Positions 8,196 to 39,620 of a stretch of DNA of 64,000 bases are shown here, piece by piece. Both the position numbers and the translations under genes were made by a program. Origin of the DNA: Mucilaginibacter sp. (GTDB lineage Bacteria > Bacteroidota > Bacteroidia > Sphingobacteriales > Sphingobacteriaceae); contig JAQBOK010000023.1 of the NCBI GenBank assembly GCA_028288085.1, positions 19 through 64,018 on the forward strand, in the 5' to 3' direction. Every line of letters begins with the position of its first letter. Within the stretch, counting starts at the first letter, position 1. Below the pieces are notes generated by a model. The model made no database searches. It had not been told where the DNA came from and saw nothing but the letters and a program-made list of their open reading frames with translations.

Positions 8196-9797
8196 ATGAA
8201 ACGCATCCTGGTTTTTGTTCTGTTTTTATTTGTGTTTACCACAGCGTTTTGCCAGGGTTATGATAACTTAGCCACTAAACTCAATACCGTTCTTGATAAA
8301 AAGAAACAGTATGATGAGGAAAAGATAAGGAGGATAGATAATTTAAAAAAGCTGCTGAAGGAGGATGATAACCCCGATCTGAATGCCCGGTATGCGATCT
8401 ACCTGAGCTTGTATAATGAGTATAAATCATTTAATTATAACGAGGCATTTAATTATACCCAAAAATTGCAGCAGGTGGGCCGTTTGTTAAAAGACCCGGC
8501 CAAAATTGCTTATGGAAAAGTTAAGCTGGGGTTTATTTTGCTTTCGTCGGGCATGTTCAAAGAAACATTCGACTCCCTGCGTACCGTTAATGTAAAGCTG
8601 CTGGCTGATACGGAGAAGAAGGAATACTATTTCTTAACGGCCCGCACCTATTATGACCTGGCTGATTTTGATAAGGATAATTACTATGCCCCCATTTACA
8701 ATAGTCGCGCCAGCAAATACATTGATTCGGGAATTAATTTGTGCAAGGCAAACTCATTTGAATATGTTTATTATACCGGGTTAACGTCTCTTAAAACGGG
8801 TAATATGAATAAGGCGATAGCTAATTTAAAATTGCTTATTAGCCGGTCTGATTTAACCGACCACCGGTTTGCCGTAACCGCGTCAACACTCAGTGATATT
8901 TATATCAGGGCAAACAAACCCGATAGCGCCATTAGCCTTCTGGCACTCGCGGCAATGGCCGATATCCGGTCGTCAACCAAGGAAGCCGCCGCTATGCTTA
9001 ACCTGGCACAGTTGCTGCACACGCAGGGCGATGCCCGGAACGCCTATGTTTTTATAAGGCAGGCGATGGAGGATGCTATTTACTATGGCGCCAGGCAGCG
9101 AAAGATACAGGTGGGCGCCATTTTGCCGGTGATAGCGAGCGAACGGATCAACTCCGTGGAAGAACAGCGGCGTGTATTGTTCCTGTATGCTTTATCACTT
9201 ACCGTATTATCGCTCATTGTGGTAGTATTTGCAGTAATTATTTATAAGCAGCTCCGAAAATTAAAAATAGCCGATAAGATCATCCTCGAAGCCAATCATA
9301 ACCTGCAAGAGAGTATAGACAAACTGAATGAAGCCGATAAAATAAAGGAGGAATATATAGGCTATTATTTCAACCTCATATCTGAATACATTAATAAGCT
9401 GGAGAAATTTAAACGGTCTGTTGATAATAAACTAACCACCAAAAGGTTTGAAGATATCCGCATCATAGTAAACAACATCAACCTCACCAAAGAGCGCGAG
9501 GAGCTTTTTATTAATTTCGATAAAGCCTTTTTAAAGATCTTCCCCAATTTTGTTTGTGCCTACAATTCGTTATTTGACGAGGAGCACCAGGTGAAGCTTT
9601 TACCCAACCAACTAATGAATACCGACCTGCGGATATTTGCATTGATAAGGCTCGGTATCCACGATACCGAAAAGATAGCTAATATATTGGAGTACTCCGT
9701 AAACACCATTTACAATTACAAAGCCCGCATAAAAAGCAAATCAAAGATATCTAACGATGATTTTGAGCAGGCTATCATGGCAATTAAGGCCTTCTAA
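8196..9797 (+). CDS. SusR-like PUL regulator (TPR-like sensor, TM helix, DUF6377/HTH)
   Basis: Signal peptide, helical periplasmic region, one TM, then KEEYIGYYF...REELFINFDKAFLKIFPNF...TDLRIFALIRLGI.D...IA.IL.YSVNTIYNYKARIK; directly upstream of susC. Confidence 0.85.
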   Translation: MKRILVFVLFLFVFTTAFCQGYDNLATKLNTVLDKKKQYDEEKIRRIDNLKKLLKEDDNPDLNARYAIYLSLYNEYKSFNYNEAFNYTQKLQQVGRLLKDPAKIAYGKVKLGFILLSSGMFKETFDSLRTVNVKLLADTEKKEYYFLTARTYYDLADFDKDNYYAPIYNSRASKYIDSGINLCKANSFEYVYYTGLTSLKTGNMNKAIANLKLLISRSDLTDHRFAVTASTLSDIYIRANKPDSAISLLALAAMADIRSSTKEAAAMLNLAQLLHTQGDARNAYVFIRQAMEDAIYYGARQRKIQVGAILPVIASERINSVEEQRRVLFLYALSLTVLSLIVVVFAVIIYKQLRKLKIADKIILEANHNLQESIDKLNEADKIKEEYIGYYFNLISEYINKLEKFKRSVDNKLTTKRFEDIRIIVNNINLTKEREELFINFDKAFLKIFPNFVCAYNSLFDEEHQVKLLPNQLMNTDLRIFALIRLGIHDTEKIANILEYSVNTIYNYKARIKSKSKISNDDFEQAIMAIKAF

Positions 9798-10230
9798 GTA
9801 AAAATCACTTCCTGTTCCTGTTATATGCCGTTTATATTTACCGGCTATTGTATGTTGATTAAGTAATTGATTATCAGTTATTTGATATTTTATAAACACG
9901 CCTGTGGTTTATATTTTGCCTTTGAAAATTGCTGCCCAAAATTATATCCCCTCTATTTGATATCGTATTAGCAACCTGCTGAAGATCTGTTTTAGCACCA
10001 GCCAATATTATAAACCAATTATTGCCAAATCTTATTGTTTATGAAAACCTATCAAGGAAATGATCCATTGTTAGTTTGTTTTTCTGTACAGCTCTTAGGG
10101 TACAGCAGCAAGGCTGATATTAAGCATTTCAACATGCATTTGCTTTCGGGATAAAGCATCTATCCGGCGAAATTCTTACGCTCTTCAAAACCAATTAAAT
10201 ATCAATCAACAACCTAAAAATCTAAACATT

Positions 10231-13200
10231 ATGTATAAAAAACAATTACTAAAATTACTTTTTTGTCCTTTGTTTTTGCTGATATCATCCTGGGCCATGG
10301 CACAGAATGTATCAGTTACCGGTAAAGTTACCGACGAAAAAGGACAGGTGCTTCCCGGGGTAACAGTATCCATAAAGGGAACAACCAAAGGAACAAATTC
10401 AGACCTTAACGGAAAATATGTCATTACTGCCAACAGTAATGATGTGCTGATTTTTTCGATGGTTGGATTTGTAAAGCAGGAGGCTAACATAAATAGCCGG
10501 TCAACCATCAACATTACTTTAAAAGATCAGGATCAGCTTTTAAACGAAATTGTGGTTATTGGTTATGGTTCGCAAAAACGCCGGGACGTAACCGGTTCCA
10601 TTGCTTCAGTTAAGGGCGAAACCTTTAAAGATCAACCCATCACTAACCCCATATCGGCACTGCAAGGACGAATTGCAGGTGTTAACGTGGTAGAAAGCTC
10701 CGGGCAGCCGGGTGCTGCGCCAACTATTACCATTAGGGGGCTTTCTTCATTTTACCAACCAAATCCATTATATATAGTTGATGGTATAAGGGTTGGCGAT
10801 GTTTCTAACATCAACGTGCAGGATATAGCAAGTATTGATGTTTTAAAGGATGCGGCTTCTGCGGCCATTTACGGTTCTGCAGCAGCAGGCGGCGTTTTGC
10901 TGATCACCACTAAAAAAGGCACTGGATTAGGAACAGACCCGGTGATAAACTTTAGTGCAAGGTATGGTGTTACCAAGCCAAAACTGGTTAACCTGCTGGA
11001 TAGGGACGATTTCATAAAAATACAAAACATAGTTCACCCAGCTTTTTTTGCCGGTGCTACCAAAACAGATACCTTATCAAATACTGATTGGGTGCATTCG
11101 CTTTACAAAAATGCTGTCGAACAAAATTATAATGTATCGGTTTCTGGTTCATCACCCGTAGTAAATTATCTGTTCTCCGGGTTTTATAATGCGCAAAAAG
11201 GCTCATACATCAATAATTATTCAAATATTGGTGGAGCCCGCATTAATACCGATTACAAATTAAGTAAGTACATCACCGTAGGCGAGCAATTAGGTATATC
11301 GCAACGCAAAGCAGACCCAGTATTAACCGATCTGCATAATGCGCCATTCAGAACGCAGCCTATTATTCCATTGCGCAACGAAGATGGTACCTTTGGCACC
11401 GAGCCTTCTGGCTATAAAATACAATTTGGCGGGCCAAACTCTTACGCCGCTGCCCAAACCATTACCGCGCAGGATTACACAAATAATTTGCAGGCCAATG
11501 TGTATGCTGATATAAAGCTTCCCCTGCACCTTAATTTCCGCAGCACATTTGGTTATTCTTACTATTATTACACAAGAGATCAATTCCAGGATATTTATAA
11601 CGCCGGCGCTGTTTCAGTTGGAAACAACACCCTTTATAAAAACGAGGCGCAAAGCAACCAGTTGCTAAGCAACTATGTGCTTAGCTATAATCAGAGCTTT
11701 GGTAAACACAACATCAGTGCCGTAGCCGGTTTTGAACAGATCACCAGTACCGGCAATAGCTTGTATACCAGTATGGGTTCAATCGGAATAAATGGTTATT
11801 CTTATGTTCCTACATCCATTTCGGGTGCGCAAACAGTGCTTAATGGAACATATGATTCCAACAGCCTTATTAAATCTGAATTTGGCCGCTTAAACTACAA
11901 TTATAATAACCGGTACTACTTATCGGCCTCTATCAGGCAGGATGCCAACTTCTCGGTATTCGGTCCGGATAAGCAAAGAGGTGTATTTCCGGCAGCATCA
12001 GTTGGTTGGAACATTAACGAAGAGCAGTTTTTCAAAGCAGCTTTACCGGTAATTAATGCGCTTAAATTACGCGCCAGCTACGGCTCACTTGGTAACAGTA
12101 ATATTCCTCCATATTCTTATGCTGCTAATTATACCCAGTTTAATAGCACCACAGGTATATCAGGAGGCGCGCAAGGCTTTGCACCGGGCGCACCGTTCCA
12201 GGTTGCAAACTCCAGCACCAAGCTACCAAACCCTAATGTGCATTGGGAAACAGTTACCGAAGCCAACGTAGGGATAGACGGCGAAGCGTTGAATGGCCGC
12301 TTGTATTTTACAGCAGAATGGTATAATAAAAATACCAAAGATATGCTTTATGCATTGCAGCTGCCTACAAGTGCTGGCTTTACCCAACCATATTTTACCA
12401 ATATAGGCACAGCTAATAATCGTGGTTTCGACTTTATGGTGGGTTTCCGCGACAAAGTTGGGAAATTAGGTTATGACGTTAGCGTGAATGCCGGATTTAA
12501 CAAGAATAAATTATTAAGCTTATCTGGCGCCGCCACAGATGCTGTTGTTGATGGGTATAACTATTACAACAATTCAGACGCGGGCTTTAGCATAATGTCT
12601 AATCAAAACATTACTATCAGCAAGGCAGGCCAGCCGTTCGGATCTTTTTATGGCTATAAAGTACTTGGTATTTTCCAAACGGATGCAGAAGCAGCCGGGC
12701 AAAAAGTTAACGGAAACGTTGCCCATGCCGGTGACCTGCACTACCAGGATTTAGATGGTAATGGAGTTATTAACCAGGCCGATAAGCAGATAATAGGTAA
12801 TCCTAACCCTAAGCTGGTATACGGTATAAACATTCACCTTAACTACCAGGGTTTTGATCTGGCAATGTTATTTAACGGGGTAATGGGCGTTCAGCTCTTC
12901 AACGGGGTAAAGGCTTATGAAGAGTCTCTTTTTTCTGATGGTAATACCACCAGCAAAGTGTTTGGCGATTCGTACCTGGGCAGTAATGGACTTACTTCGC
13001 AGCCGCGCCTGGGCTTAGCGCAAAATGGTGGGTTTACATTAGATCCAAACCAAAACTATAGTTCAGTAAATAGCTATTTTGTTGAAAATGGAAGCTATTT
13101 AAAGCTGAAAAACCTGCAATTTGGTTACACATTTTCTAATGGCATTTTACGGCGGTTAAGTATTAAAAGCGCCAGGGTATATGTAATGGCTAATAATGTA

Positions 13201-13353
13201 TTTACCATCACTAAATATACAGGGCTTGATCCTGAATTAGGCAGCTCATTCACACCATCTGGCTATGGTACGGTAACTACACAAGGAATAGATGGGGTAA
13301 CAAATTATCCGCAAACACGGATCTACTCTGCAGGCCTGGATCTTACTTTTTAA
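10231..13353 (+). CDS. susC: SusC-like TonB-dependent transporter
   Basis: CarboxypepD_reg-like N-terminus, plug motifs (VVIGYG, LQGRIAGV, IDVLKDAASAAIYG, GVLLITTKKG), C-terminal YPQTRIYSAGLDLTF. Confidence 0.95.
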   Translation: MYKKQLLKLLFCPLFLLISSWAMAQNVSVTGKVTDEKGQVLPGVTVSIKGTTKGTNSDLNGKYVITANSNDVLIFSMVGFVKQEANINSRSTINITLKDQDQLLNEIVVIGYGSQKRRDVTGSIASVKGETFKDQPITNPISALQGRIAGVNVVESSGQPGAAPTITIRGLSSFYQPNPLYIVDGIRVGDVSNINVQDIASIDVLKDAASAAIYGSAAAGGVLLITTKKGTGLGTDPVINFSARYGVTKPKLVNLLDRDDFIKIQNIVHPAFFAGATKTDTLSNTDWVHSLYKNAVEQNYNVSVSGSSPVVNYLFSGFYNAQKGSYINNYSNIGGARINTDYKLSKYITVGEQLGISQRKADPVLTDLHNAPFRTQPIIPLRNEDGTFGTEPSGYKIQFGGPNSYAAAQTITAQDYTNNLQANVYADIKLPLHLNFRSTFGYSYYYYTRDQFQDIYNAGAVSVGNNTLYKNEAQSNQLLSNYVLSYNQSFGKHNISAVAGFEQITSTGNSLYTSMGSIGINGYSYVPTSISGAQTVLNGTYDSNSLIKSEFGRLNYNYNNRYYLSASIRQDANFSVFGPDKQRGVFPAASVGWNINEEQFFKAALPVINALKLRASYGSLGNSNIPPYSYAANYTQFNSTTGISGGAQGFAPGAPFQVANSSTKLPNPNVHWETVTEANVGIDGEALNGRLYFTAEWYNKNTKDMLYALQLPTSAGFTQPYFTNIGTANNRGFDFMVGFRDKVGKLGYDVSVNAGFNKNKLLSLSGAATDAVVDGYNYYNNSDAGFSIMSNQNITISKAGQPFGSFYGYKVLGIFQTDAEAAGQKVNGNVAHAGDLHYQDLDGNGVINQADKQIIGNPNPKLVYGINIHLNYQGFDLAMLFNGVMGVQLFNGVKAYEESLFSDGNTTSKVFGDSYLGSNGLTSQPRLGLAQNGGFTLDPNQNYSSVNSYFVENGSYLKLKNLQFGYTFSNGILRRLSIKSARVYVMANNVFTITKYTGLDPELGSSFTPSGYGTVTTQGIDGVTNYPQTRIYSAGLDLTF

Positions 13354-13377
13354 TATTCACTCTCAAAAATTATCAAA

Positions 13378-15234
13378 ATGTTAAAGAAAATATTTATAGC
13401 AGTACTGGCGGTTATGATAATGGCCGGCTGTAAAAAGGACCCCAAGAACGTTGGGCCCACCACGGCGTATAGCACAAGCACTTACCCCCGCAATATCGCC
13501 GATTTGCAAAGCATATTAGTTTCCTGTTATTCTAACCTGCGTGATCAGGGTATATTTGGTTTCCATTTTTTACCAAAGGCGCTGTCCAACTCTATGCATA
13601 CGGTTAATTCGGTTTATGCTGATGATCCGTCATGGAATGAAATGACCAATGCTAACCTTACCATTGGTAACGAATATGTTGGTGAAACATGGCAGGCCTT
13701 ATATATTGGTGTAAAGAACTGTAATTTAACTATTTATGCCGCCAATCAATATGTAAGTCAGCATAGTTTGAGTGATGCGGATAAGCAAACCGTTAACCTG
13801 GTACTTGGCCAGGCTTATTGTTTACGCGGATGGTATTACATGGAACTGGAATGTCTTTACGGCGAAAAGTACTTATCTGCTGGCGGGGTAGGCGGCGATG
13901 CGCTGGGCGTGCCTATTTATAATGGCGTACCAACAGATCTTGCAGGTACCCAAAAATCCAGATCTACAGTAAAAGAAGTATGGGCACTCATCATCAGTGA
14001 CTTTAAACAAGCTCAAACTTTGCTTAAAGGCCAGGTTTGGGGATCGGCTGATTTAGCCCGTGTAACAGAATGGTCTGCAGAAGGCCTATTAGGTAAAGCC
14101 TATGTATATACCCAGGATTGGGCTAATGCAAAAACAGCTTTGCTGGATGTGATTACCAAAAGTGGAAAATCATTAATGGATTATAGCACTTACCACAATG
14201 CGTTTAATGGCAGCAATAAGTTTAATACAGAGTCATTATTTGAGCTGTATATTGATGCCGATGCAAAAGGCGGTTATGGCATTTACAGTGGGGCAGCTAA
14301 CTCGGCAACCATCAACGGCCTTATATGGGCACCATTTACCTTTGGCGGATACAGCTCTAATGGTACCCCTTTTAATGGTTCAGAAACCCAAAACCAGGCT
14401 TTAGGTTATGGCAATGAGTTTTTTCATGATCAAAATGTTTTACGTTTCGGGTATTCACTGGGCAGCAATTTTAACCTGGTAGCTAATCCAAAATACAACC
14501 CAGTTGTAGGTCCAACGTTTTATAACCAGCAACAGGTAATGGATCCGGTTTATAAGCAGGCAGCTTTACTGGCCCGTACAAATAATACTACCGACCCGCG
14601 TTTATATGTAAATGCAATGCAGCCACGTATTGATTCGGTTCAATTTGATGGTAAAACATGGGCATTGGTTTGCAGGCCCGCATATTTTGCCGGATCTGCA
14701 AATAGCACAGCATATGGTTGGGCAATCAGGAAATACGCATCAATAAACTACAATGAAAATACAGGCCTGGGTAATCCTTCCGGCTCTGGAAATACAGCAG
14801 ACGCATGGGATTATTACATCCTCCGCCTGGCAGATGTATACCTGCTTTATGCAGAGGCATCCATACAAGGCGGCGATGCTGCAACGGGGCTCGAATATTT
14901 AAATAAGGTTAAACGCAGAGCATATAGCTATCCTGTTAATTCACCTTCGCCGGTTGATTATGCAAGCGCTACCAGTCAAACAAACGCTATAAATGACCCT
15001 GTTTTAGGGCACAACCCGCTATACTACGAGCGTTGGGCCGAATTGTTTAATGAAGGTTCATGGTGGTTTGATGTATGCAGGTGGCGCATAGGTAAATCAG
15101 AAGCAGCCTATTACGGAACCGCTATTAATGTTAACGGTGCTTTACATTGGGATGATTCTAAATCCTATGTATGGCCAATTCCGCAAAGTGAGATCAATAG
15201 CAATGGTAAGATAAAGCAGAGTTCGGGTTATTGA
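13378..15234 (+). CDS. susD: SusD/RagB-like surface lipoprotein
   Basis: Lipobox IMAGC; GQAYCLRGWYY, LRLADVYLLYAEA, ERWAELFNEG, WPIPQSEI. Confidence 0.93.
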   Translation: MLKKIFIAVLAVMIMAGCKKDPKNVGPTTAYSTSTYPRNIADLQSILVSCYSNLRDQGIFGFHFLPKALSNSMHTVNSVYADDPSWNEMTNANLTIGNEYVGETWQALYIGVKNCNLTIYAANQYVSQHSLSDADKQTVNLVLGQAYCLRGWYYMELECLYGEKYLSAGGVGGDALGVPIYNGVPTDLAGTQKSRSTVKEVWALIISDFKQAQTLLKGQVWGSADLARVTEWSAEGLLGKAYVYTQDWANAKTALLDVITKSGKSLMDYSTYHNAFNGSNKFNTESLFELYIDADAKGGYGIYSGAANSATINGLIWAPFTFGGYSSNGTPFNGSETQNQALGYGNEFFHDQNVLRFGYSLGSNFNLVANPKYNPVVGPTFYNQQQVMDPVYKQAALLARTNNTTDPRLYVNAMQPRIDSVQFDGKTWALVCRPAYFAGSANSTAYGWAIRKYASINYNENTGLGNPSGSGNTADAWDYYILRLADVYLLYAEASIQGGDAATGLEYLNKVKRRAYSYPVNSPSPVDYASATSQTNAINDPVLGHNPLYYERWAELFNEGSWWFDVCRWRIGKSEAAYYGTAINVNGALHWDDSKSYVWPIPQSEINSNGKIKQSSGY

Positions 15235-30462: not shown

Positions 30463-30632
30463 ATCAAATACAGTATTTAATTAAAGATTGTTTGTTGTTG
30501 AATTAATCATTAGGTAACAATTGCCTTGAAGGGAAAAATTAACAAAACAATACAAATGTTTAATTGTACTTAGTTATGAAAATCCGATCCTCTTATTATA
30601 TTCTATTTAATTCCGAAGCAAAATTTATTCCA

Positions 30633-31016
30633 ATGAGCAAGCTGATATTAATTGATGATGATGTGATATATCACAAAATTGCCCAGATAATGTTAAAGGA
30701 ATATAGTCCGGTCAAAGAAGTTATTTCAAGTCTGGATGGTAAAGCTACTCTTGAATATCTGAAAGAGAATAGATCGAATGAAGAAAATCTTCCTGATTAT
30801 ATATTTGTCGATCTGAACATGCCTGACTACAATGGATGGGATTTTTTAAATGCCTATAAAAGGATTCGTAAATCTTTACAAAAAGTAATACGTATCTATA
30901 TTGTATCGTCTTCTATTGATCCTAATGACATTAAACGCTCCAAAAATTACACTTTTGTTCATTCATTTATTGTGAAGCCGTTGAGAAGGGAATTTTTACA
31001 AGCTTTGATCGATTGA
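30633..31016 (+). CDS. Stand-alone response regulator receiver
   Basis: Start moved to MSKLILIDDD; IFVDLNMPDYNGWDFL, IVSSS, FIVKPL. Confidence 0.88.
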   Translation: MSKLILIDDDVIYHKIAQIMLKEYSPVKEVISSLDGKATLEYLKENRSNEENLPDYIFVDLNMPDYNGWDFLNAYKRIRKSLQKVIRIYIVSSSIDPNDIKRSKNYTFVHSFIVKPLRREFLQALID

Positions 31017-31310: not shown

Positions 31311-33248
31311 TTGTTGCAACTATTACACTACCAGAAAACGATAAAAAAATTTGCAAAGTCATTATTTGCAAACCTCATTTTATTAATTTGTTTACTACCA
31401 GCATTAAATGCATCGGCTCAGCAAAAAGTTACAATTGATGATGGGGTAAAACAACACATTTTTTCCTACAATGAAATAGAATGCCTGGAGGATACCAACG
31501 GATCACTCCAATTTAACCAGGTTTTGTCGCCGCAGGTATCATCTCAATTTAAGCCCAGCTGGTCAAGCACTCCCCAAAATTACAACCGGTCTTCGGTATA
31601 TTGGTACAGGATCAGCATTAAACACCCGCTAAACACTAAGAAAAATTGGGTGCTTGAATTTTTTGATCAAACTATTGATGATATAACTGCTTACATACCT
31701 ACCTCAAGCGGAAAATTTGAAATAGAGAAATTGGGGGCTTTAAATAAATTTGGCAAACGACAGATTCAACATAAAAACTTCGTGGTTGGGCTTAATATTC
31801 ATCCTCCTGCCACCTATACCTATTATTTCAGGATAAAATCGCATCAAACGGCAGATGTCATCATTGTACTTCGTTCTGTTAACTGGTTCATTGAATATGC
31901 ATTAAGCGAATACTTGCTTTTTGGCGTGTTTTATGGAATGATATTGGTTTTTGCTTTTTATAACCTGTTAATGTTTGTAGCTGTAAGACAACGACAGTAC
32001 ATATATTATATACTATATAACCTGAGTGTAGGCTTTTATGAGCTTTGCAGCGATGGTATTGGTTATCAATATATATGGCCAAATTCACCCGTTTGGAATG
32101 AGTATGCTTACGGATTTGCTCTTTGTAGTATCAGCGTATTTGCATTAATGTTTACCAACAAATTGTTGTTTGTGAAAATAAAAGCTCCCCGGTTACACAA
32201 ATTGATAAATATAGTAATAGGGGCAAGGATCGCCTTTTTCGTTATTTGCTTTTTCGTAAACAAGCAATGGTTCAATTATCGGTTTTTAGAATTTTTGCCG
32301 CTATGCATAGCATTTTATACGGGTATCTATGTATATATAAAAGGATACAGACCGGCCCGGTTTTTTGTATTGGGCTATAGCTTTTTGTTCACTGGGTTTG
32401 TAATGAAACTACTGATCACCATTGGGCAAATGGATTTGGGCGCCTTTAGTTATTATAGCCTTAGTATTTGTTTTATTTTAGAAATGATCTTTCTTGCACT
32501 CGCATTGAGTGATAAAGTAAGAATTTTAAAACGGCAAAAAGATAAGGCGCAGCGCGAAATTATCAAACAGCTAAAAGCTACCCAAAGACTTAAAGAATCT
32601 ATCAATACCAGGCTGGAAGAACAAGTACAGGAAAGAACACGCGAAGTATTGGAGAAGGCGGGCATTATTGAAAAGCAAAACGAAGACCTTAACCTTGTTA
32701 ATGAAATTTTGCAGGTACAGGCAGCCGATATATTGAGAATGAATTTGTTGCTTGAAAAGGATAACCTGGAGCTGCAAACAGGTTTTGAAAAAGTTACCCG
32801 GGATCGGATCATGTCTGCCGGCGTAGATTTTGAAGAGTTTAGCAGAATTTACCCGGACCCCGACAGTTGCTATAAGTTTTTGGCAAACCTTAAGTGGAAT
32901 AACGGATATAAATGCCATAGATGCGGCAACACGCATTCTTTTAATGGACATGTGAACCACAGCAGGCGCTGCGGTAAATGCAGTTACGAAGAATCTGTTA
33001 CGGTAAACACAATATTTCACAATACGCGGATTCCTATAACCAAGGCTTTTTATATGATATTTTTGGTTTATTCAACTAACGGCAAAATATCATCTTACAA
33101 ACTGTCTGAAATGTTATCTATACGCCAAAGTACTTGCTGGGCATACAGCAATCGCATAAAAAAACTCTTATCAAGCCGCAGAAAAGGAGTTAAAAGCGAA
33201 ACCAATGAGGGTTGGAGCAAGCTGGTGCTGGATATGCACGAAGAATAA
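31311..33248 (+). CDS. 7TM-DISM membrane sensor (DISMED2 + 7TM + coiled coil) fused to an IS1595-type Zn-ribbon/HTH domain
   Basis: IECLEDTNGSL...VYWYRISI...WVLEF (DISMED2-like); FYGMILVFAFYNLLMF...LEMIFLALALSDKV (7TM-DISM); C-terminal FSRIYPD..SCYKFLANLKWNNGYKCHRC...RCGKC..SVTVNTIFHNTRIPI...ISSYKLSEMLSIRQSTCWAY. Confidence 0.85.
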   Translation: MLQLLHYQKTIKKFAKSLFANLILLICLLPALNASAQQKVTIDDGVKQHIFSYNEIECLEDTNGSLQFNQVLSPQVSSQFKPSWSSTPQNYNRSSVYWYRISIKHPLNTKKNWVLEFFDQTIDDITAYIPTSSGKFEIEKLGALNKFGKRQIQHKNFVVGLNIHPPATYTYYFRIKSHQTADVIIVLRSVNWFIEYALSEYLLFGVFYGMILVFAFYNLLMFVAVRQRQYIYYILYNLSVGFYELCSDGIGYQYIWPNSPVWNEYAYGFALCSISVFALMFTNKLLFVKIKAPRLHKLINIVIGARIAFFVICFFVNKQWFNYRFLEFLPLCIAFYTGIYVYIKGYRPARFFVLGYSFLFTGFVMKLLITIGQMDLGAFSYYSLSICFILEMIFLALALSDKVRILKRQKDKAQREIIKQLKATQRLKESINTRLEEQVQERTREVLEKAGIIEKQNEDLNLVNEILQVQAADILRMNLLLEKDNLELQTGFEKVTRDRIMSAGVDFEEFSRIYPDPDSCYKFLANLKWNNGYKCHRCGNTHSFNGHVNHSRRCGKCSYEESVTVNTIFHNTRIPITKAFYMIFLVYSTNGKISSYKLSEMLSIRQSTCWAYSNRIKKLLSSRRKGVKSETNEGWSKLVLDMHEE

Positions 33249-33561
33249 TCACCTTTTTAACTTCATTTGCCCTGCTGTAAACAGCTCTGTATCAATTTAT
33301 TAAAAAGGGTATTTACCCGTATCATTACAGACAGATTTTCCCTGCCATTTTCTTTCTTTTTAATTAATAATCAACACTTTAAATTACTTTGATTTAAGGT
33401 ATTAAACCGTATTGTTTATTTTATAACTGTTTATATATCAGTTATTTATGTGAAAAAATATTATATTTTTTTTCTTTTTAATGTTTTATGCATTTAACTT
33501 TACCCCTCAATTCAATTAATATGCTATCAGCATAATACCAATTTTAAAAACACAAAAATGT

Positions 33562-36500
33562 ATGAAAAAACGACTTACTTTAATTGTAGTCATCTTATTA
33601 ATCAGCAGTGCTTTTGCCTGGGCACAAACAATCGCTGTTAATGGAATTGTCAAAGATGACCAGGGCATAACACTGCCCGGAGTAACTGTTACAGTAAAAG
33701 GCACATCCAATGCTGCTGTAACAGATATAAATGGAAAATATTCCATAAGTGTTCCCGGCAACGGAACCCTGGTGTTTTCATTTATTGGCTACGACAGCCA
33801 GGAGCAACCTGTAAATAACCGTACAGAGATCGATGTATCATTTGTTGCAACAAACAAGCAGCTAAATGAAGTGGTAGTTGTTGGTTATGGTTCTCAAAGA
33901 AAAAAGGATATCACATCTGCCATATCAACGGTAAGTGTTAAAGATGTTAGCTCAAGACCTATAGTTAATACTTCAGAAGTATTAGAGGGTAAAGCTGCAG
34001 GTGTACAGGTGTTTGATGCATCTGGCGCTCCGGGTGGCGGCAACTTCAGCGTAAGGATACGGGGAGCATCATCGCCAAATGGTTCTGAGCCTATTTATGT
34101 TATTGATGGGGTTGTAGTGCAAAATACTTCGAGTATAGATCCCAATAACATTGAGTCTATCAGTGTTTTGAAAGATGCCTCGGCTGCCGGAATTTACGGA
34201 TCATTAGGCGCAACAAATGGCGTTGTATTAATTACCACTAAAAAGGGAGTTAAAGGACAAACCAAGGTTGAAGTAAACATGTATACAGGTAGGCAACAAA
34301 TAATTAAAAAATTAGATATGCTGAATGCCGACCAGTATAAGAGCCTTATAAGTGATGAGTATACAAATGCCGGCCAATCAGTACCTGCATACCCGGCTAA
34401 CTTCACCGCCAATAATAACTGGCAGGATTTGACCTATAGAACCGCTAACCAAAGCGGAGTAAACGTTGGTTTATCCGGCGGTACAGATAAGGGCACTTTT
34501 TATTTAGGATTGGGCGACTTAAACCAGGATGGAATTATATACGGAACAAATTTTAAACGTTACTCCATTAATTTAAGCCTGGAACAAAAAATGAAAAGTT
34601 GGTTGTCTTTTGGTACCGACATCGCTTATAACAGGCAGGATGGTCGTACCGTAAATGATAACAACTCTGCAAATCATGGCGGTACAGTGCTGGCTGCTTT
34701 ATCTACGCCTCCAATTGTGCCGATATATAATGCAGATGGTATGTATCAGTCAAACTCTGATAATACAACCAATCCACTGGATGATATTTACAGTAATGAA
34801 AACCATTATGTAAAAAATAATTTATTAGGAAATGTGCATGCTGAAATTACTTTGCCATTTAATATTAAATACCGCTCACAACTTGGTATCTCCTTAAATG
34901 ATTATAATACTGATTCATTTATCAATCCTTTGACTAACCAGGGGGCCAGCCAGGTTAATGGTGTAGGTAGCAGCGAGAATAATGAAACATTCAGATATAC
35001 CTGGGATAATACCTTAACTTATTCAACAGTAATTAATAAAAAACATAGCATTACTGCTGTAATAGGAACATCAGCTATCGAGGAAAAATATACCGATAGC
35101 TATTTGTATGGCACAGGTTTCCCGGCTGGGGTTACTACCTTAAATGCAGCAAGTGCAAATAAATCAATTTCTACTTATAAAACCGACTGGACAACCAATT
35201 CTTATTTTGGTCGTGTCAATTACGGCTACAATGATAAATATTTGTTAACGGCATCGTTAAGGGCAGACGGATCATCAAGGGCGGGCATCAACAATCAGTG
35301 GGGATATTTCCCTGCCGTATCTGGCGCATGGCGTATCTCAAACGAGGATTTTCTGAAAAATAGTAACTTTGTAAATGATCTTAAATTAAGAGCTGGTTAT
35401 GGTGAAGTGGGTAACTTACCGCAAACACTTTATAATAGCTACAGCACATTAAACCCCGCGGCTTACTTATTTGGAGGTACCAGCGCATCCGGGTATAATC
35501 CTACCAATCCGGCAGGTAACCCCGATTTAAAATGGGAAACCACCAAAGGATTAAACATTGGGTTTGACTTGTCTGTTTTAAATGACAAAATATCATTAAG
35601 TGCTGATTATTACAGTAAAAAAACTACCGATTTTATTTTTCCTGTTATAATATCCACAGCTGAAGGCGGCAGTGCAAATCTTAAGAATACTAATTTGCCC
35701 GGTTATGTATTAAATCGAGGTATTGAATTTTCGCTAACCGGCAGAATAATAGCGGATAAAGACTTCTCATGGACAGCTACGCTGAACGCATCATTTAATA
35801 AAAATGTAGTTAATGGAATGCCACAGATATTAGACTCTAATGGCAATAAAGTTGATCAGACTTTTCCTTTTGGCGGAATTGCATTTGGCGGAAACGGAAA
35901 TGCAACCAACCTGGCAATTGTGAAAAATGGCCTTCCATTAGGAGCATTTTATGGTTATCAGTTTGCCGGAGTAGATCCTGCTAACGGCAATGCATTGTAT
36001 AAAACAGCAAAAGGAGGTACCACCGCGACACCAACAACGGATGACCAAACCTACTTGGGAAGCGGTTTGCCAAAAGCAGTTTACGGCTTTGCGAATACTA
36101 TCACCTATAAAAATTTAAGTTTAGACTTTTTGTTTGATGCGGTAGCAGGCAACAAGGTATATGATGCCACAAGAGTTGAAACCGAAGGGATGGATTTAAC
36201 AGGTAATGCAAGCACCGCTGTATTGAACAGGTGGAGAAAGCCGGGTGACATTACAAATGTTCCTGCGGCAAATATTACCGGTATCAATGCTGCGGGCTTT
36301 TCAACCATTGTACCGTCTTCACGCTTTATTGAAAATGGAGCTTTTGTGAGATTGAAATCATTGTCATTGGGCTATGTGATTAAAAATGAACTTCTTGAAA
36401 AACAAGGGATAAAAATACGCGTGTACGCAACAGCTCAAAACTTGTTTACCATTACCAAGTACAAAGGATATTATCCTGAAGTGAATTCGTTTAGCGGAAG

Positions 36501-36612
36501 TTCGCAAAGTGGAGGCTCCCTTGGCGCGCCAAGCTCAACTGCTATAGGTATTGACTATGGCACATATCCGCAAACAAAAACTTATACAGCGGGCCTGAAT
36601 GTATCATTTTAA
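33562..36612 (+). CDS. susC: SusC-like TonB-dependent transporter
   Basis: VVVGYG, LEGKAAGV, ISVLKDASAAGIYG, GVVLITTKKG, YPQTKTYTAGLNVSF. Confidence 0.95.
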   Translation: MKKRLTLIVVILLISSAFAWAQTIAVNGIVKDDQGITLPGVTVTVKGTSNAAVTDINGKYSISVPGNGTLVFSFIGYDSQEQPVNNRTEIDVSFVATNKQLNEVVVVGYGSQRKKDITSAISTVSVKDVSSRPIVNTSEVLEGKAAGVQVFDASGAPGGGNFSVRIRGASSPNGSEPIYVIDGVVVQNTSSIDPNNIESISVLKDASAAGIYGSLGATNGVVLITTKKGVKGQTKVEVNMYTGRQQIIKKLDMLNADQYKSLISDEYTNAGQSVPAYPANFTANNNWQDLTYRTANQSGVNVGLSGGTDKGTFYLGLGDLNQDGIIYGTNFKRYSINLSLEQKMKSWLSFGTDIAYNRQDGRTVNDNNSANHGGTVLAALSTPPIVPIYNADGMYQSNSDNTTNPLDDIYSNENHYVKNNLLGNVHAEITLPFNIKYRSQLGISLNDYNTDSFINPLTNQGASQVNGVGSSENNETFRYTWDNTLTYSTVINKKHSITAVIGTSAIEEKYTDSYLYGTGFPAGVTTLNAASANKSISTYKTDWTTNSYFGRVNYGYNDKYLLTASLRADGSSRAGINNQWGYFPAVSGAWRISNEDFLKNSNFVNDLKLRAGYGEVGNLPQTLYNSYSTLNPAAYLFGGTSASGYNPTNPAGNPDLKWETTKGLNIGFDLSVLNDKISLSADYYSKKTTDFIFPVIISTAEGGSANLKNTNLPGYVLNRGIEFSLTGRIIADKDFSWTATLNASFNKNVVNGMPQILDSNGNKVDQTFPFGGIAFGGNGNATNLAIVKNGLPLGAFYGYQFAGVDPANGNALYKTAKGGTTATPTTDDQTYLGSGLPKAVYGFANTITYKNLSLDFLFDAVAGNKVYDATRVETEGMDLTGNASTAVLNRWRKPGDITNVPAANITGINAAGFSTIVPSSRFIENGAFVRLKSLSLGYVIKNELLEKQGIKIRVYATAQNLFTITKYKGYYPEVNSFSGSSQSGGSLGAPSSTAIGIDYGTYPQTKTYTAGLNVSF

Positions 36613-36635: not shown

Positions 36636-38111
36636 ATGAAGAAATATTATAAAATATCGGCAATTGCGATGTGTTTAGCAATTGGACTAACATCAAGCTG
36701 TAAAAAGGACTTTTTAAATAAACAGCCTATTTCACAGGGTACCGCAGGTAACTATTATAAAACGGCCAGTGATGCTGAAGGCGGATTGGTGGGGGCTTAT
36801 CAGCAAGCTTTTTTGAACGATCAATATTGGGTTTGGGATTATACAACCAATGGTGATGCACGCGCGGATAATTGTTATTCTGGTGGAAATAATCCTGATA
36901 ACATTGGTGTAGATAACTTTACCCTATCATCACTTAATGGAAATATAACCCGCGACTGGCAGGGATTATACCAGGATATCTATGCTTCAAATATAGTATT
37001 AGATTATGTACCCAAAATTCCTGCAACGCAATTTGCAAATAACAGGCAACAGCAAATTCTTGGGGAAGTTAAATTTATAAGAGCATTATCCTATTTTCAG
37101 CTGGTTACCACTTACGGAGATGTTCCATTAATTTTATCAACCATAAATACACCAGTTAAACCAACAAGGACAGCAGCGAGCACTGTATATGCCCAAATAG
37201 AAAAGGATCTGCTGGATGGTGAGGCGGTTCTACCGGTTTCATTTGCCAATGTGGGGCATGCCACACAAGGCGCTGTACAGGCCTTATTAGCAAAAGTATA
37301 TGCCCAGGAAGGTAAATACCAACAATGTCTGGACTATTGCAACAAGGTGATTAACGGTGGTCAATATGCATTAGTACCAAACTATGCAACCTTGTTTGAT
37401 GGCACTAAAAATACCTCTGAGTCCATATTTGAGATACAACACTCATCTGCCAGTGGTTTTACTACTTACAATACTTCGTTGTATTTACCTGCTCAGTTTG
37501 GCACCTATTCTTTTTTAAAGTTTAATGTTCCAACTAATGACCTTATTAAGTTGTTTAAATCACAAAACGACAATATCCGTTTAAACGCGTCGGTCTTTAC
37601 AGCAACAATAGCACCTGATGGAACAGTAGCAGGAGACCCAATCCCACCTCCATACACTAACGCTTCACCTACAGTTCCTTTCTTGTATAAATGGAAAACC
37701 AACATCTCGCAATTTGGCGGCGGTACAGATAATACCATACTATTACGCCTGGCTGATATTATACTGCTAAAGGCCGAAGCCTCAAACCAATTGGGACAAA
37801 CAGCACCGGCAGTCACTTTGGTAAACCAGATCAGAACAAGGGTTAAACTACCTGCTATAACAGCAACTACTCAAGCTGACGTTGCGTTGGCCATATTAAC
37901 TGAACGCAGAATGGAGCTGGCTTTTGAAGGCTTCCGCTGGAACGACCTTTTGAGGTATGGTAAACAATATACGATCAGTTTAATGAATAGCCAGGTTGAC
38001 CCTTTCGGGAAAACATTAAATTATAATGTAACCCCAAATAAATTGTTATTCCCAGTTCCGTATAATGAGATACAGTTAGACGGTAACCTTACTCAAAACC
38101 CTGGTTATTAA
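36636..38111 (+). CDS. susD: SusD/RagB-like surface lipoprotein
   Basis: Lipobox LTSSC; GEVKFIRALSYF, LRLADIILLKAEA, ERRMELAFEGFRWNDL, PVPYNEI, QNPGY. Confidence 0.94.
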   Translation: MKKYYKISAIAMCLAIGLTSSCKKDFLNKQPISQGTAGNYYKTASDAEGGLVGAYQQAFLNDQYWVWDYTTNGDARADNCYSGGNNPDNIGVDNFTLSSLNGNITRDWQGLYQDIYASNIVLDYVPKIPATQFANNRQQQILGEVKFIRALSYFQLVTTYGDVPLILSTINTPVKPTRTAASTVYAQIEKDLLDGEAVLPVSFANVGHATQGAVQALLAKVYAQEGKYQQCLDYCNKVINGGQYALVPNYATLFDGTKNTSESIFEIQHSSASGFTTYNTSLYLPAQFGTYSFLKFNVPTNDLIKLFKSQNDNIRLNASVFTATIAPDGTVAGDPIPPPYTNASPTVPFLYKWKTNISQFGGGTDNTILLRLADIILLKAEASNQLGQTAPAVTLVNQIRTRVKLPAITATTQADVALAILTERRMELAFEGFRWNDLLRYGKQYTISLMNSQVDPFGKTLNYNVTPNKLLFPVPYNEIQLDGNLTQNPGY

Positions 38112-38201: not shown

Positions 38202-39620
38202 ATGTATAACTGTAAGTATCTCATTATCGTTTTATTAATCATATTTGGTTTGCAATCAATTAATGCTGATGGCCAAAAATTGAAACATGGGGTAACCAAA
38301 CCTCAGTTATGGCTCACCGATCCTGATCACGAAGTGCTGTTTAAATTACAAGATCAAAGCGTTAAGCAGGTACCCACACTAAAAAGTATCCCAGCAATCA
38401 TCATTGATAAATCAACGGTTTATCAGCAAATGGATGGTTTTGGGTTCGCTTTAACAGGTGGTAGTGCTATGCTTATTAATAAAATGAGCACTGATAAGCA
38501 GGCTGATCTATTAAAGGAATTATTTGGAGTTAGTAAAAACGATATTGGTGTTAGCTACTTACGGATAAGCGTAGGAGCATCAGACCTTGATGATCATGTT
38601 TTCTCTTATGATGATCTGCCAAAGGGTGAAACAGACGAAGATCTTAAAAAATTCAGTTTGGCTAATGATGAAAAAGCACTGATACCAGTGTTGAAAAAAA
38701 TATTGATTATAAATCCGGATATTAAGATCCTTGCATCGCCATGGAGCCCTCCAACCTGGATGAAGACTAATGACAGTACAGGTGGCGGGCATTTAAAACC
38801 TGAATATTATCATGCTTATTCGCAATACTTAATAAAATATATAAAGGGAATGGCAGCTAACGGGATTCATATTGATGCGCTCACAACTCAAAATGAACCA
38901 CTAAACCCCAAAAATAACCCCAGTATGGTTATGGAAGCGCCCGAACAGGGCAACTTTATTAGGAATAACCTGGGGCCCGATTTTAGGATTGAAAAAATTA
39001 ACACGAAGATCATTCTGTATGATCATAACGCCGACAGGCCTGATTATCCTATTTCAATTCTAAATGACCCGGAAGCTAAAAAATATGTAGATGGCTCGGC
39101 TTTTCATCTATATGGCGGCAAAATAGAAGCCCTATCCGATGTTCATAATGCTCATCCTGATAAAAACCTATACTTTACAGAAGAGTGGGTTGGCGCGCCG
39201 GGTAATTTAAAAGAGAATATGCGCTTTCACATAAAGGATTTAATAATTGGCGCGCCCAGAAACTGGAGCCGTAATGTTATTGAATGGAACCTGGCAGCAG
39301 ATCAGAACCAGGAACCACATACTCCGGGTGGATGTGATCGTTGCCTGGGCGCTATTACTATAAATGGAGATCAGGTGACAAGAAATTCAGCTTATTATAT
39401 CATTGCACATGCTTCAAAATTTGTAAGACCAGGCTCACGGCGCATAGCATCTAATTACTTAAAAGAATTACCAAATGTTGCATTCTTAACACCGGCAGGA
39501 AAAATTGTTCTGATCGTGTATAATGATTCCAGCGACACGCAAACTTTTAATATTAAATTAAATAATAAACAGCTGTCTTCTGTTTTAAATCCTGGTGCTA
39601 CGGGTACTTTTCTGTTTTGA
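38202..39620 (+). CDS. GH30 glycoside hydrolase (GH30_3-like, probable endo-beta-1,6-glucanase)
   Basis: QQMDGFGFALT, YLRISVGASD, ASPWSPPTWMKT, TTQNEP (acid/base), YFTEEW (nucleophile), WNLAAD, HASKFVRPG. Confidence 0.88.
   Translation: MYNCKYLIIVLLIIFGLQSINADGQKLKHGVTKPQLWLTDPDHEVLFKLQDQSVKQVPTLKSIPAIIIDKSTVYQQMDGFGFALTGGSAMLINKMSTDKQADLLKELFGVSKNDIGVSYLRISVGASDLDDHVFSYDDLPKGETDEDLKKFSLANDEKALIPVLKKILIINPDIKILASPWSPPTWMKTNDSTGGGHLKPEYYHAYSQYLIKYIKGMAANGIHIDALTTQNEPLNPKNNPSMVMEAPEQGNFIRNNLGPDFRIEKINTKIILYDHNADRPDYPISILNDPEAKKYVDGSAFHLYGGKIEALSDVHNAHPDKNLYFTEEWVGAPGNLKENMRFHIKDLIIGAPRNWSRNVIEWNLAADQNQEPHTPGGCDRCLGAITINGDQVTRNSAYYIIAHASKFVRPGSRRIASNYLKELPNVAFLTPAGKIVLIVYNDSSDTQTFNIKLNNKQLSSVLNPGATGTFLF

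Follow-up and report, generated by a model that had tools for sequence, protein, structure and literature searches.

A candidate membrane-bound regulator of a beta-1,6-glucan utilization locus in Mucilaginibacter, with a predicted DNA-binding module related to IS1595 transposases

The regulators of polysaccharide utilization loci (PULs) usually belong to the hybrid two-component systems (HTCS), the SusR-like proteins or the extracytoplasmic function (ECF) sigma/anti-sigma pairs, in addition to cytoplasmic regulators of the LacI, GntR and AraC types. What, then, controls a PUL when the position of its regulator is taken by a membrane protein that ends like a transposase? This question was raised by a 64-kb stretch of DNA from Mucilaginibacter sp. 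(contig JAQBOK010000023.1; the whole stretch is called the window below; host genome, 5.07 Mb), in which a gene at 31311-33248, here named the regulator gene, lies directly upstream of susC, susD and a gene for a glycoside hydrolase of family 30 (GH30). We propose as the likely answer that its product is a membrane-tethered, phosphorelay-free one-component regulator, which activates transcription of the adjacent susC-susD-GH30 (beta-1,6-glucan) PUL.

Domain architecture and the transposase-related module

The open reading frame (ORF) of the regulator, on the forward strand, comprises 645 codons for 645 amino acids (aa); its TTG start is preceded by AAAAGGGGG, and the frame is closed four codons further upstream. 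The signal peptide, the DISMED2 domain and the 7TM-DISM helices that a first-pass annotation had assigned to this gene were borne out by Pfam, the hydropathy profile and an AlphaFold2 (AF2) model (Table 1). The full-length model, built from an alignment of 37 full-length members, reached a mean predicted local distance difference test (pLDDT) score of 79. Pfam located 7TMR-DISMED2 (PF07696) at residues 55-187 (E 3e-32), and the strands of the modelled beta-sandwich spanned residues 48-189. Foldseek returned the RetS sensor domain (3JYB; TMt 0.81, E 6e-6) as the best fold match of this periplasmic domain, followed by carbohydrate-binding sandwiches of glycosidases and of the carbohydrate-binding module (CBM) families CBM6 and CBM28. 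The 7TMR-DISM_7TM profile (PF07695) matched residues 200-402 over its entire length (positions 1-205 of 205; E 2e-46), membrane helices were also seen in the hydropathy profile, and the AF2 model contained seven of them. The coiled coil claimed earlier appeared in the model as one uninterrupted helix from residue 379 to 485 (about 105 residues, pLDDT about 80-90), which extends the seventh transmembrane (TM) helix into the cytoplasm and probably forms a dimeric coiled coil.

Behind a short, flexible linker of low confidence (residues 484-507), the AF2 model showed the C-terminal module as two short leader helices, a strand-based ribbon with C535, C538, C554 and C557 (C535-x2-C538…C554-x2-C557), and three helices resembling a helix-turn-helix (HTH) at residues 576-588, 595-602 and 606-622, the last with the peptide IRQSTCW. 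The peptide FEEFSRIYPD… quoted in the first-pass annotation begins at residue 507 (base 32829). Because the N-terminal domain is exported and the TM helices are odd in number (seven), the module is placed in the cytoplasm. Neither HisKA, HATPase, REC, AraC nor sigma/anti-sigma domains were found in the regulator by Pfam and NCBIfam, and no kinase, GGDEF, cyclase or PP2C output was present either, the cytoplasmic parts consisting of the helix and the zinc-ribbon/HTH only; Pfam likewise gave no match to TPR_SusR/DUF6377, Reg_prop/Y_Y_Y or GerE. A periplasmic sensor, a membrane span and a cytoplasmic domain of DNA-binding type are therefore united in one chain free of phosphorelay domains.

The earlier observation that the C-terminus mirrors the N-terminus of IS1595 transposases was substantiated by profile matches and by comparison with genuine IS1595 transposases (NF033547, 165-206 bits) that were fetched from genomes of the host's own family. 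Zn_ribbon_IS1595 (PF12760) matched residues 518-559 with E 7.8e-5 (23 bits against a curated cut-off of 25.4), and the same profile matched 37 of 37 aligned members at E <= 0.01, with a best E of 4.8e-7. Colinear with the ribbon, residues 571-625 matched positions 1-56 of the 215 positions of the NCBIfam profile transpos_IS1595 (NF033547), which in real transposases form the stretch between the ribbon and the DDE domain. In BLASTP, residues 501-625 of the regulator aligned with residues 1-125 of the nearest transposase (L093:1285-2166) at 37.6% identity over 125 aa (107 bits). This transposase is a protein of 294 aa with the Pfam domains DDE_Tnp_IS1595 and Zn_ribbon, and its element is bounded by 15-bp perfect terminal inverted repeats. 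Three further transposase sequences matched the module with 44-65 bits. At the likely recognition helix, the regulator has IRQSTCW where the nearest real transposase has LRQKTCW.

As the first-pass annotation had stated, nothing else of an insertion sequence (IS) was recognizable at the gene. The DDE catalytic domain (PF12762) is absent, since the protein ends 20 aa after the module, and the only inverted repeats found around the gene were weak and AT-rich, none of them convincing. A scan of the host genome detected no second copy, the regulator being its sole PF12760 match over the cut-off. Structural comparison was less informative: the C-terminal model found nothing below E = 1 among the PDB structures with Foldseek (only generic zinc ribbons, the DnaA DNA-binding domain and an Lrp HTH), a profile search of the PDB sequences gave no match, and BFVD returned two unnamed matches only. 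Structural proof of DNA binding was accordingly rejected as a line of argument. We conclude from these alignments that the module is derived from the N-terminal DNA-binding region of an IS1595 transposase, a conclusion that rests on sequence homology and not on the fold, because no solved structure resembles the module.

The transposase sequences closest to the module (up to 128 bits) were the N-termini of nine IS1595-like paralogues of about 305-320 aa in a single genome (G368; L102 and L129-L134). These are 70-80% identical to each other, within the coding region only, and were rejected as a source of inverted repeats, no terminal inverted repeats being detectable. They may be old, immobile or otherwise unusual copies.

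Conservation of the fusion and portability of the module

A word-indexed protein search yielded more than 1235 homologues of the regulator; the best 120, from Mucilaginibacter, Pedobacter, Chitinophaga, Arcticibacter and Rubrolithibacter, were 526-757 aa long, and all had the sensor domains. A scan of one genome per species identified at least 457 loci with relatives of the regulator, and the best 80 of the 457 were used for locus comparisons. The refuting case named in the first-pass annotation, a fusion unique to this strain with decayed cysteines or flanking IS ends, did not apply. The full-length fusion was found with intact frames in hundreds of species from three orders, the module was intact in all 80 loci, and the three Pfam domains were present in 37 of 37 aligned full-length members, with C520, C535, C538, C554, C557 and most of the HTH invariant. 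The ratio of nonsynonymous to synonymous substitution rates (dN/dS; Nei-Gojobori, medians over 10-15 pairs), a rough figure here because dS is near saturation, was 0.013 for the HTH, 0.015 for the zinc ribbon, 0.026 for the 7TM region, 0.054 for the helix and 0.072 for the sensor. The C-terminal domain, for which the first-pass annotation had suggested this measurement, thus has the lowest values in the protein, and the transposase-derived part is clearly its most constrained region. Among 401 evenly sampled Bacteroidota genomes, nine, from three families, contained long forms, and the remaining module matches were transposases of about 300 aa.

Homologues are labelled in the sources as '7TM diverse intracellular signaling domain-containing protein', 'hypothetical' or 'transposase-like zinc ribbon protein', and many family members appear in public records as 'chromosome partitioning protein ParA' or 'ribosomal protein S27AE'.

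The position directly upstream of susC-susD-GH30, also pointed out earlier, was retained as well. A tblastn comparison of the window proteins with the 80 loci revealed that 76 share the order regulator-susC-susD-GH30, with all genes in one orientation (a contig end truncates two), across Mucilaginibacter, Pedobacter, Chitinophaga, Dyadobacter and Arcticibacter, which represent three orders. The best solved relative of the GH30 protein was 5NGK (268 bits), that is, BT3312, the endo-beta-1,6-glucanase of the pustulan PUL of Bacteroides thetaiotaomicron, and the enzyme is probably an endo-beta-1,6-glucanase itself. No protease gene and no other regulator gene was conserved in the 80 loci. In two paralogous loci GH30 follows directly, without susC between. 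Divergent members adjoin other beta-glucan genes: susC-susD-GH3-GH16, the gene for a 1961-aa GH81 protein with CBM6 modules, or a GH16 gene about 3 kb away; one has GH20 and CBM9 genes as neighbours.

Three Mucilaginibacter loci (L078, L079 and L080) form a paralogue subgroup with 57-58% identity, followed by GH30 without susC and susD and lacking the GGTAT-N5-CGTATC motif described below; genome NZ_CP183226 has both a PUL-linked copy (L005) and such a paralogue (L079). The window contains a second PUL at 8196-15234 on the forward strand, with a regulator gene (8196-9797), susC (10231-13353) and susD (13378-15234). Its regulator is a DUF6377/TPR protein (282 bits), which confirmed that a DUF6377 gene fills the corresponding slot there. 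A stand-alone receiver ORF (30564-31016, forward strand; 150 aa, Response_reg, TTG start, no output domain) lies 295 bp upstream of the regulator gene. Neither this ORF nor the MatE genes upstream of the regulator were conserved in the 80 related loci, and involvement of the receiver was rejected for want of synteny.

The module is not confined to 7TMR-DISM proteins. A search with the 156-aa C-terminus against 1.84 billion representatives returned 7357 proteins at E <= 1e-3 and 1299 at E <= 1e-10. Nearly all of the best 150 matches had the module at their C-terminus, and lengths clustered at about 600-650 aa (the 7TMR-DISM type), about 980-1100 aa and below 300 aa, the last being short forms or fragments. 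The proteins of about 1000 aa combine Reg_prop propellers and Y_Y_Y, the periplasmic sensor type of HTCS and of the Formosa agariphila regulator BguR, with a ribbon that scores above the Pfam cut-off. The three propeller-type loci that were looked up (L125, L127 and L128; proteins P0143, P0285 and P0283) all lie in clusters of carbohydrate-active enzyme genes, arranged as susC-susD-FG-GAP-GH43-regulator, as GH94-GH2-esterases-regulator-DUF5040-GH127, and as GH94-GH2-esterases-regulator with GH30 nearby. Since none was present in the 401 Bacteroidota genomes, propeller-type fusions are apparently uncommon or limited to lineages known chiefly from metagenomes.

A third sensor type was represented by P0316 (577 aa; L136:1253-2986, on a metagenome scaffold), in which a TPR_SusR/DUF6377 N-terminal half and a TM segment are followed by a coil and the zinc-ribbon/HTH. 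Residues 28-448 share 36% identity with the DUF6377/TPR_SusR regulator of the window's second PUL, and residues 374-577 share 42% identity over 204 aa with the helix and module of the regulator studied here. A GH97 gene follows P0316, and the protein is known from three member sequences only, on contigs of at most 4.7 kb. The module thus occupies the slot of the C-terminal half of DUF6377, which presumably contains the DNA-binding region of SusR-type regulators. The swap is the strongest comparative argument that the module and the DUF6377 C-terminal half have equivalent roles.

A maximum-likelihood tree of 133 modules placed those of the 111 regulators on one side of a branch and the 22 transposases on the other, with a Shimodaira-Hasegawa-like approximate likelihood ratio test (SH-aLRT) value of 99.4. 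The 7TMR and propeller types were interleaved, which implies seven changes, only one or two of them forced by well-supported branches. Capture of the module on a single occasion from an IS1595-type transposase is supported by the tree but not proven, because the regulators were picked as best matches to the query and the transposase sample was small.

Conserved elements between the regulator gene and susC

Analysis of the 313-bp spacer between the regulator gene and susC suggested two candidate operator sites with the pattern GGTATN5CGTAT (Table 1). The pattern has two matches in the 64-kb window, both in this spacer, against 0.04 expected; genome-wide it is at background level, with 15 matches against 9 for a reversed control and no other pair. 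A weight matrix was built from 73 exact sites in orthologous spacers and applied at a threshold of >= 12 bits. It detected exactly two forward-strand sites, 90-92 bp apart, in 59 of the 80 spacers and a single one in a further 18, usually accompanied at that distance by a weaker one, and no reverse-strand sites. The site density was 5.46 per kb in spacers but 0.0056 per kb in the remaining 1.6 Mb of locus sequence, an enrichment of about 1000-fold that is optimistic because the matrix was trained on the spacers that it scored. The fixed strand, spacing and register of the sites are independent of this circularity.

Downstream of the pair, 55 of the 80 spacers share the 8-mer TAACTTTA, and its distance to the proximal site is fixed: the site generally starts 99 bp upstream of the 8-mer (97 bp in the window). 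A conserved CTTG precedes the 8-mer by about 21 nt in most genera. We take the conserved TAACTTTA(C) to be a Bacteroidota -7 box of the TAnnTTTG type. An anchored alignment of 53 non-redundant spacers revealed two more elements, B1 and B2, both of which contain ATCA, as does the half-site CGTATCA; they may represent additional half-sites or be bound by another factor.

A transposon origin of the operator was considered on account of an apparent 9/12 likeness to the 15-bp perfect inverted repeats of L093 and L135 (TAGAATAAGGCGTTT). It was rejected, the best weight-matrix score of that end being -3.8, at the 95th percentile of the background. A sigma-70 promoter and terminator scan was also discarded, its counts being equal to those of shuffled sequences; such a scan is unsuited to Bacteroidota.

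Table 1. Positions in the window of the regulator gene, its encoded regions, the spacer elements and the adjacent PUL genes
Feature	Position	Strand	Basis
Regulator gene (sensor and predicted transposase-derived DNA-binding module)	31311..33248	+	ORF list, translation, Pfam, NCBIfam
Signal peptide, residues 1-37 (…LLPALNASA/QQ)	31311..31421	+	Hydrophobic segment 13-37; AxA-QQ motif kept in alignment
Periplasmic 7TMR-DISMED2 beta-sandwich, residues 55-187, presumed glycan sensor	31473..31871	+	Pfam, AF2, fold match
Seven transmembrane helices, residues 200-402	31908..32516	+	Pfam, hydropathy, AF2
Long cytoplasmic signalling helix, continuous with TM7	32517..32765	+	AF2, dN/dS 0.054, co-transfer in P0316
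IS1595-transposase-derived DNA-binding module (predicted), residues 501-625	32811..33185	+	PF12760, NF033547, BLASTP, AF2
Distal candidate operator site, GGTATTTACCCGTATCA	33308..33324	+	GGTATN5CGTAT pattern; position kept in orthologous spacers
Element B1, TAATAATCAAC (consensus CTGATAATCAA)	33363..33375	+	Anchored alignment
Proximal candidate operator site, GGTATTAAACCGTATTG	33398..33414	+	Pattern; 90 bp after distal site, 97 bp before -7 box
Element B2, CTGTTTATATATCAG (consensus CTAATTATCA)	33428..33441	+	Anchored alignment
Conserved TAACTTTAC, putative Bacteroidota-type -7 box for susC	33495..33503	+	8-mer TAACTTTA at fixed distance
susC-like TonB-dependent transporter	33562..36612	+	Pfam CarbopepD_reg_2, Plug, TonB_dep_Rec; synteny
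susD-like glycan-binding lipoprotein	36636..38111	+	Pfam SusD-like_3, SusD_RagB; synteny
GH30 glycoside hydrolase, probable endo-beta-1,6-glucanase	38202..39620	+	Pfam Glyco_hydro_30, 30C

Proposed mechanism, alternatives and related systems

According to the mechanism that we propose, the surface GH30 would release oligosaccharides, which SusCD would import and the periplasmic domain would bind. The 7TM bundle and the helix, which is probably a dimer, would relay the signal and change the geometry of the two cytoplasmic DNA-binding heads. Still anchored in the membrane, these heads would bind the GGTAT-N5-CGTATC repeats, located upstream of the susC promoter at distances of about 100 and 190 bp, and would activate transcription, as SusR and BguR do.

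Several points weigh against this proposal. Zinc binding, DNA binding, the identity of the operator, a beta-1,6-gluco-oligosaccharide ligand, activation as the sign of control and action from the membrane are all properties that we infer. The zinc-ribbon score of the regulator itself falls just under the curated Pfam cut-off, the AF2 model of the C-terminal module is moderately confident (pLDDT 71), and no solved structure is similar to it. The candidate operators are centred at about -100 and -190, which is far upstream for a simple activator, they are unlike the inverted repeat of the nearest transposon, and their enrichment is partly circular; the CTRATWATCA elements could be the real site of the regulator, or that of another factor. 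In addition, the motif was found neither in the divergent members nor in the two paralogue loci without susC, and the loci of the propeller and SusR types lack it too. The motif is thus specific to the GH30 subfamily, and its absence from the susC-less paralogues and the divergent subfamilies is expected if specificity has diverged.

Alternative roles for the same protein were also weighed. The regulator might be a repressor whose unliganded heads block or loop the susC promoter, or ligand-triggered proteolysis in the linker 484-507 might free a zinc-ribbon/HTH fragment. Two sites 90-92 bp apart on one helix face and far upstream would suit looping, while the low-confidence linker between helix and module, together with the existence of 140-270-aa proteins that comprise hardly anything beyond the module (although many may be fragments), would suit release. 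We nevertheless consider both unlikely. SusR is an activator thought to act while membrane-bound, and the same is thought of BguR, which along with SusR is the closest functional analogue; moreover, the module and the long helix are conserved together and were transferred together, a pattern that points to direct mechanical coupling, and no protease gene is conserved at the locus. It is also conceivable that the module does not bind DNA at all, but binds RNA or a partner, or dimerises via the zinc ribbon, the spacer motifs belonging to an unlinked regulator. Consistent with this idea, no demonstration of DNA binding by the IS1595 N-terminal domain was found in the searched material, the fold searches gave weak generic zinc-ribbon/HTH matches only, and the spacer contains a second family of conserved elements. 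However, purifying selection within the regulator is strongest on the ribbon and the HTH-like helices, the putative recognition helix is nearly identical to that of the nearest transposase, the P0316 module sits at the C-terminal slot of the second half of DUF6377, which presumably binds DNA, and no other regulator gene is conserved at the locus, so that we regard a module without DNA binding as quite improbable.

A two-component relay of unconventional kind, in which the sensor acts via the upstream stand-alone receiver, was suggested by the proximity of that Response_reg ORF on the same strand, but the regulator has no kinase or phosphotransfer domain and the receiver gene is missing from the same position in the other 80 loci; the probability of this explanation is very small. 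The transposase ancestry of the module and the sub-threshold ribbon score of the window protein would also fit a chance in-frame IS1595 remnant in a 7TMR-DISM gene, that is, a strain-specific decaying pseudogene. Such a history is practically negligible: the fusion is intact in hundreds of species of three orders with a dN/dS of about 0.014, inverted repeats, a DDE remnant and other genome copies were not found, and the conservation of the fusion refutes it. Thus, a membrane-tethered one-component activator remains our preferred interpretation.

The closest parallel is BguR of Formosa agariphila, in which a propeller/Y_Y_Y sensor, one TM helix, a helical linker and a GerE HTH are combined; it was described only in 2026, and its deletion abolishes growth on laminarin (bioRxiv 10.64898/2026.01.10.698779). 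BguR adjoins beta-glucan PULs and is found in Bacteroidota only, the interval between its gene and the first gene of the PUL contains a conserved motif, and its authors regarded SusR alone as having a comparable architecture (bioRxiv 10.64898/2026.01.10.698779). Both BguR and, as proposed, the regulator described here are membrane-spanning one-component PUL regulators with a conserved spacer motif, a likeness of logic and not of descent: the former has a tandem beta-propeller/Y_Y_Y, one TM helix and a GerE/LuxR HTH, whereas the latter has DISMED2, seven TM helices and a zinc-ribbon/HTH. BguR was proven by deletion and transcriptomics, whereas the role of the 7TMR-DISM/zinc-ribbon family is predicted from sequence. 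In Bacteroides thetaiotaomicron, the 1,6-beta-glucan PUL with GH30_3 is governed by the SusR-type BT3309 (PMC5481569). SusR/DUF6377 proteins such as BT3309 and the product of window gene 8196-9797 are likewise membrane-anchored one-component regulators in the same slot before susC/susD, but their TPR sensor and output domain are unrelated to those of the regulator. The first-pass annotation had placed the regulator outside the SusR, HTCS and ECF/anti-sigma classes. As regards domains this was correct, since it has a one-component architecture and none of the domains of those classes; it does not, however, stand outside known logic, because it is functionally parallel to SusR and BguR, and chimeras with SusR-type and BguR-type sensors carry the same module.

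The 7TMR-DISM receptors RetS, LadS, SagS and RgsP (PF07695/PF07696) have the same DISMED2 fold and the same 7TM module. Known receptors of this type signal via histidine kinase, GGDEF, cyclase or phosphatase domains, and to our knowledge none has been described with a direct DNA-binding output. IS1595 transposases (ISXO2-like; PF12760 and PF12762, NF033547) share a zinc ribbon and HTH that are homologous over the full length, but the regulator has no DDE domain and no terminal inverted repeats, is single-copy, carries the module C-terminal to a membrane sensor and falls on a separate branch. The HTCS of Bacteroides sense periplasmic glycans at the inner membrane, as is presumed for the regulator, and likewise lie beside the PUL, but they possess HisKA, HATPase_c, REC and AraC domains, none of which it has. 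Transcription factors of the ToxR/CadC type bind DNA while in the inner membrane; unlike the regulator, they are bitopic, with an N-terminal winged-helix DNA-binding domain, the opposite topology and unrelated domains. A literature search found no paper on the combination of 7TMR-DISM with an IS1595 module, although most subscription journals lay outside its coverage, so this absence is not proof.

Taken together, these data lead us to favour, by a modest preference, a broader view of the module. One ancient capture would have produced a portable unit of helix, zinc ribbon and HTH, which environmental Bacteroidota then joined to unrelated periplasmic glycan sensors of three or more types (7TMR-DISM, propeller/Y_Y_Y and SusR-type TPR), giving a large, unrecognised, ATP-independent class of PUL regulators mislabelled by annotation pipelines, in which the GH30-linked subfamily of three orders would recognise a fixed promoter arrangement with two phased GGTAT-N5-CGTATC direct repeats. 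PF12760 serves as a transposase marker in mobile-element pipelines (PMC13639185). Such use would flag these regulators wrongly, and the profile should therefore not be the sole marker of a mobile element. Together, the conserved operator and the sensor would supply genetic tools for Bacteroidota other than Bacteroides with a glycan-inducible switch that is ready for use. Domestication of transposases into transcription factors is well known in eukaryotes and rarely documented in bacteria, and the regulator would be a clear bacterial case of a transposase DNA-binding domain domesticated as the output of a transcription factor. The family would add a class of PUL regulators that dominates the fungal beta-glucan loci of soil Sphingobacteriales, Chitinophagales and Cytophagales, bacteria that matter for the turnover of fungal necromass.

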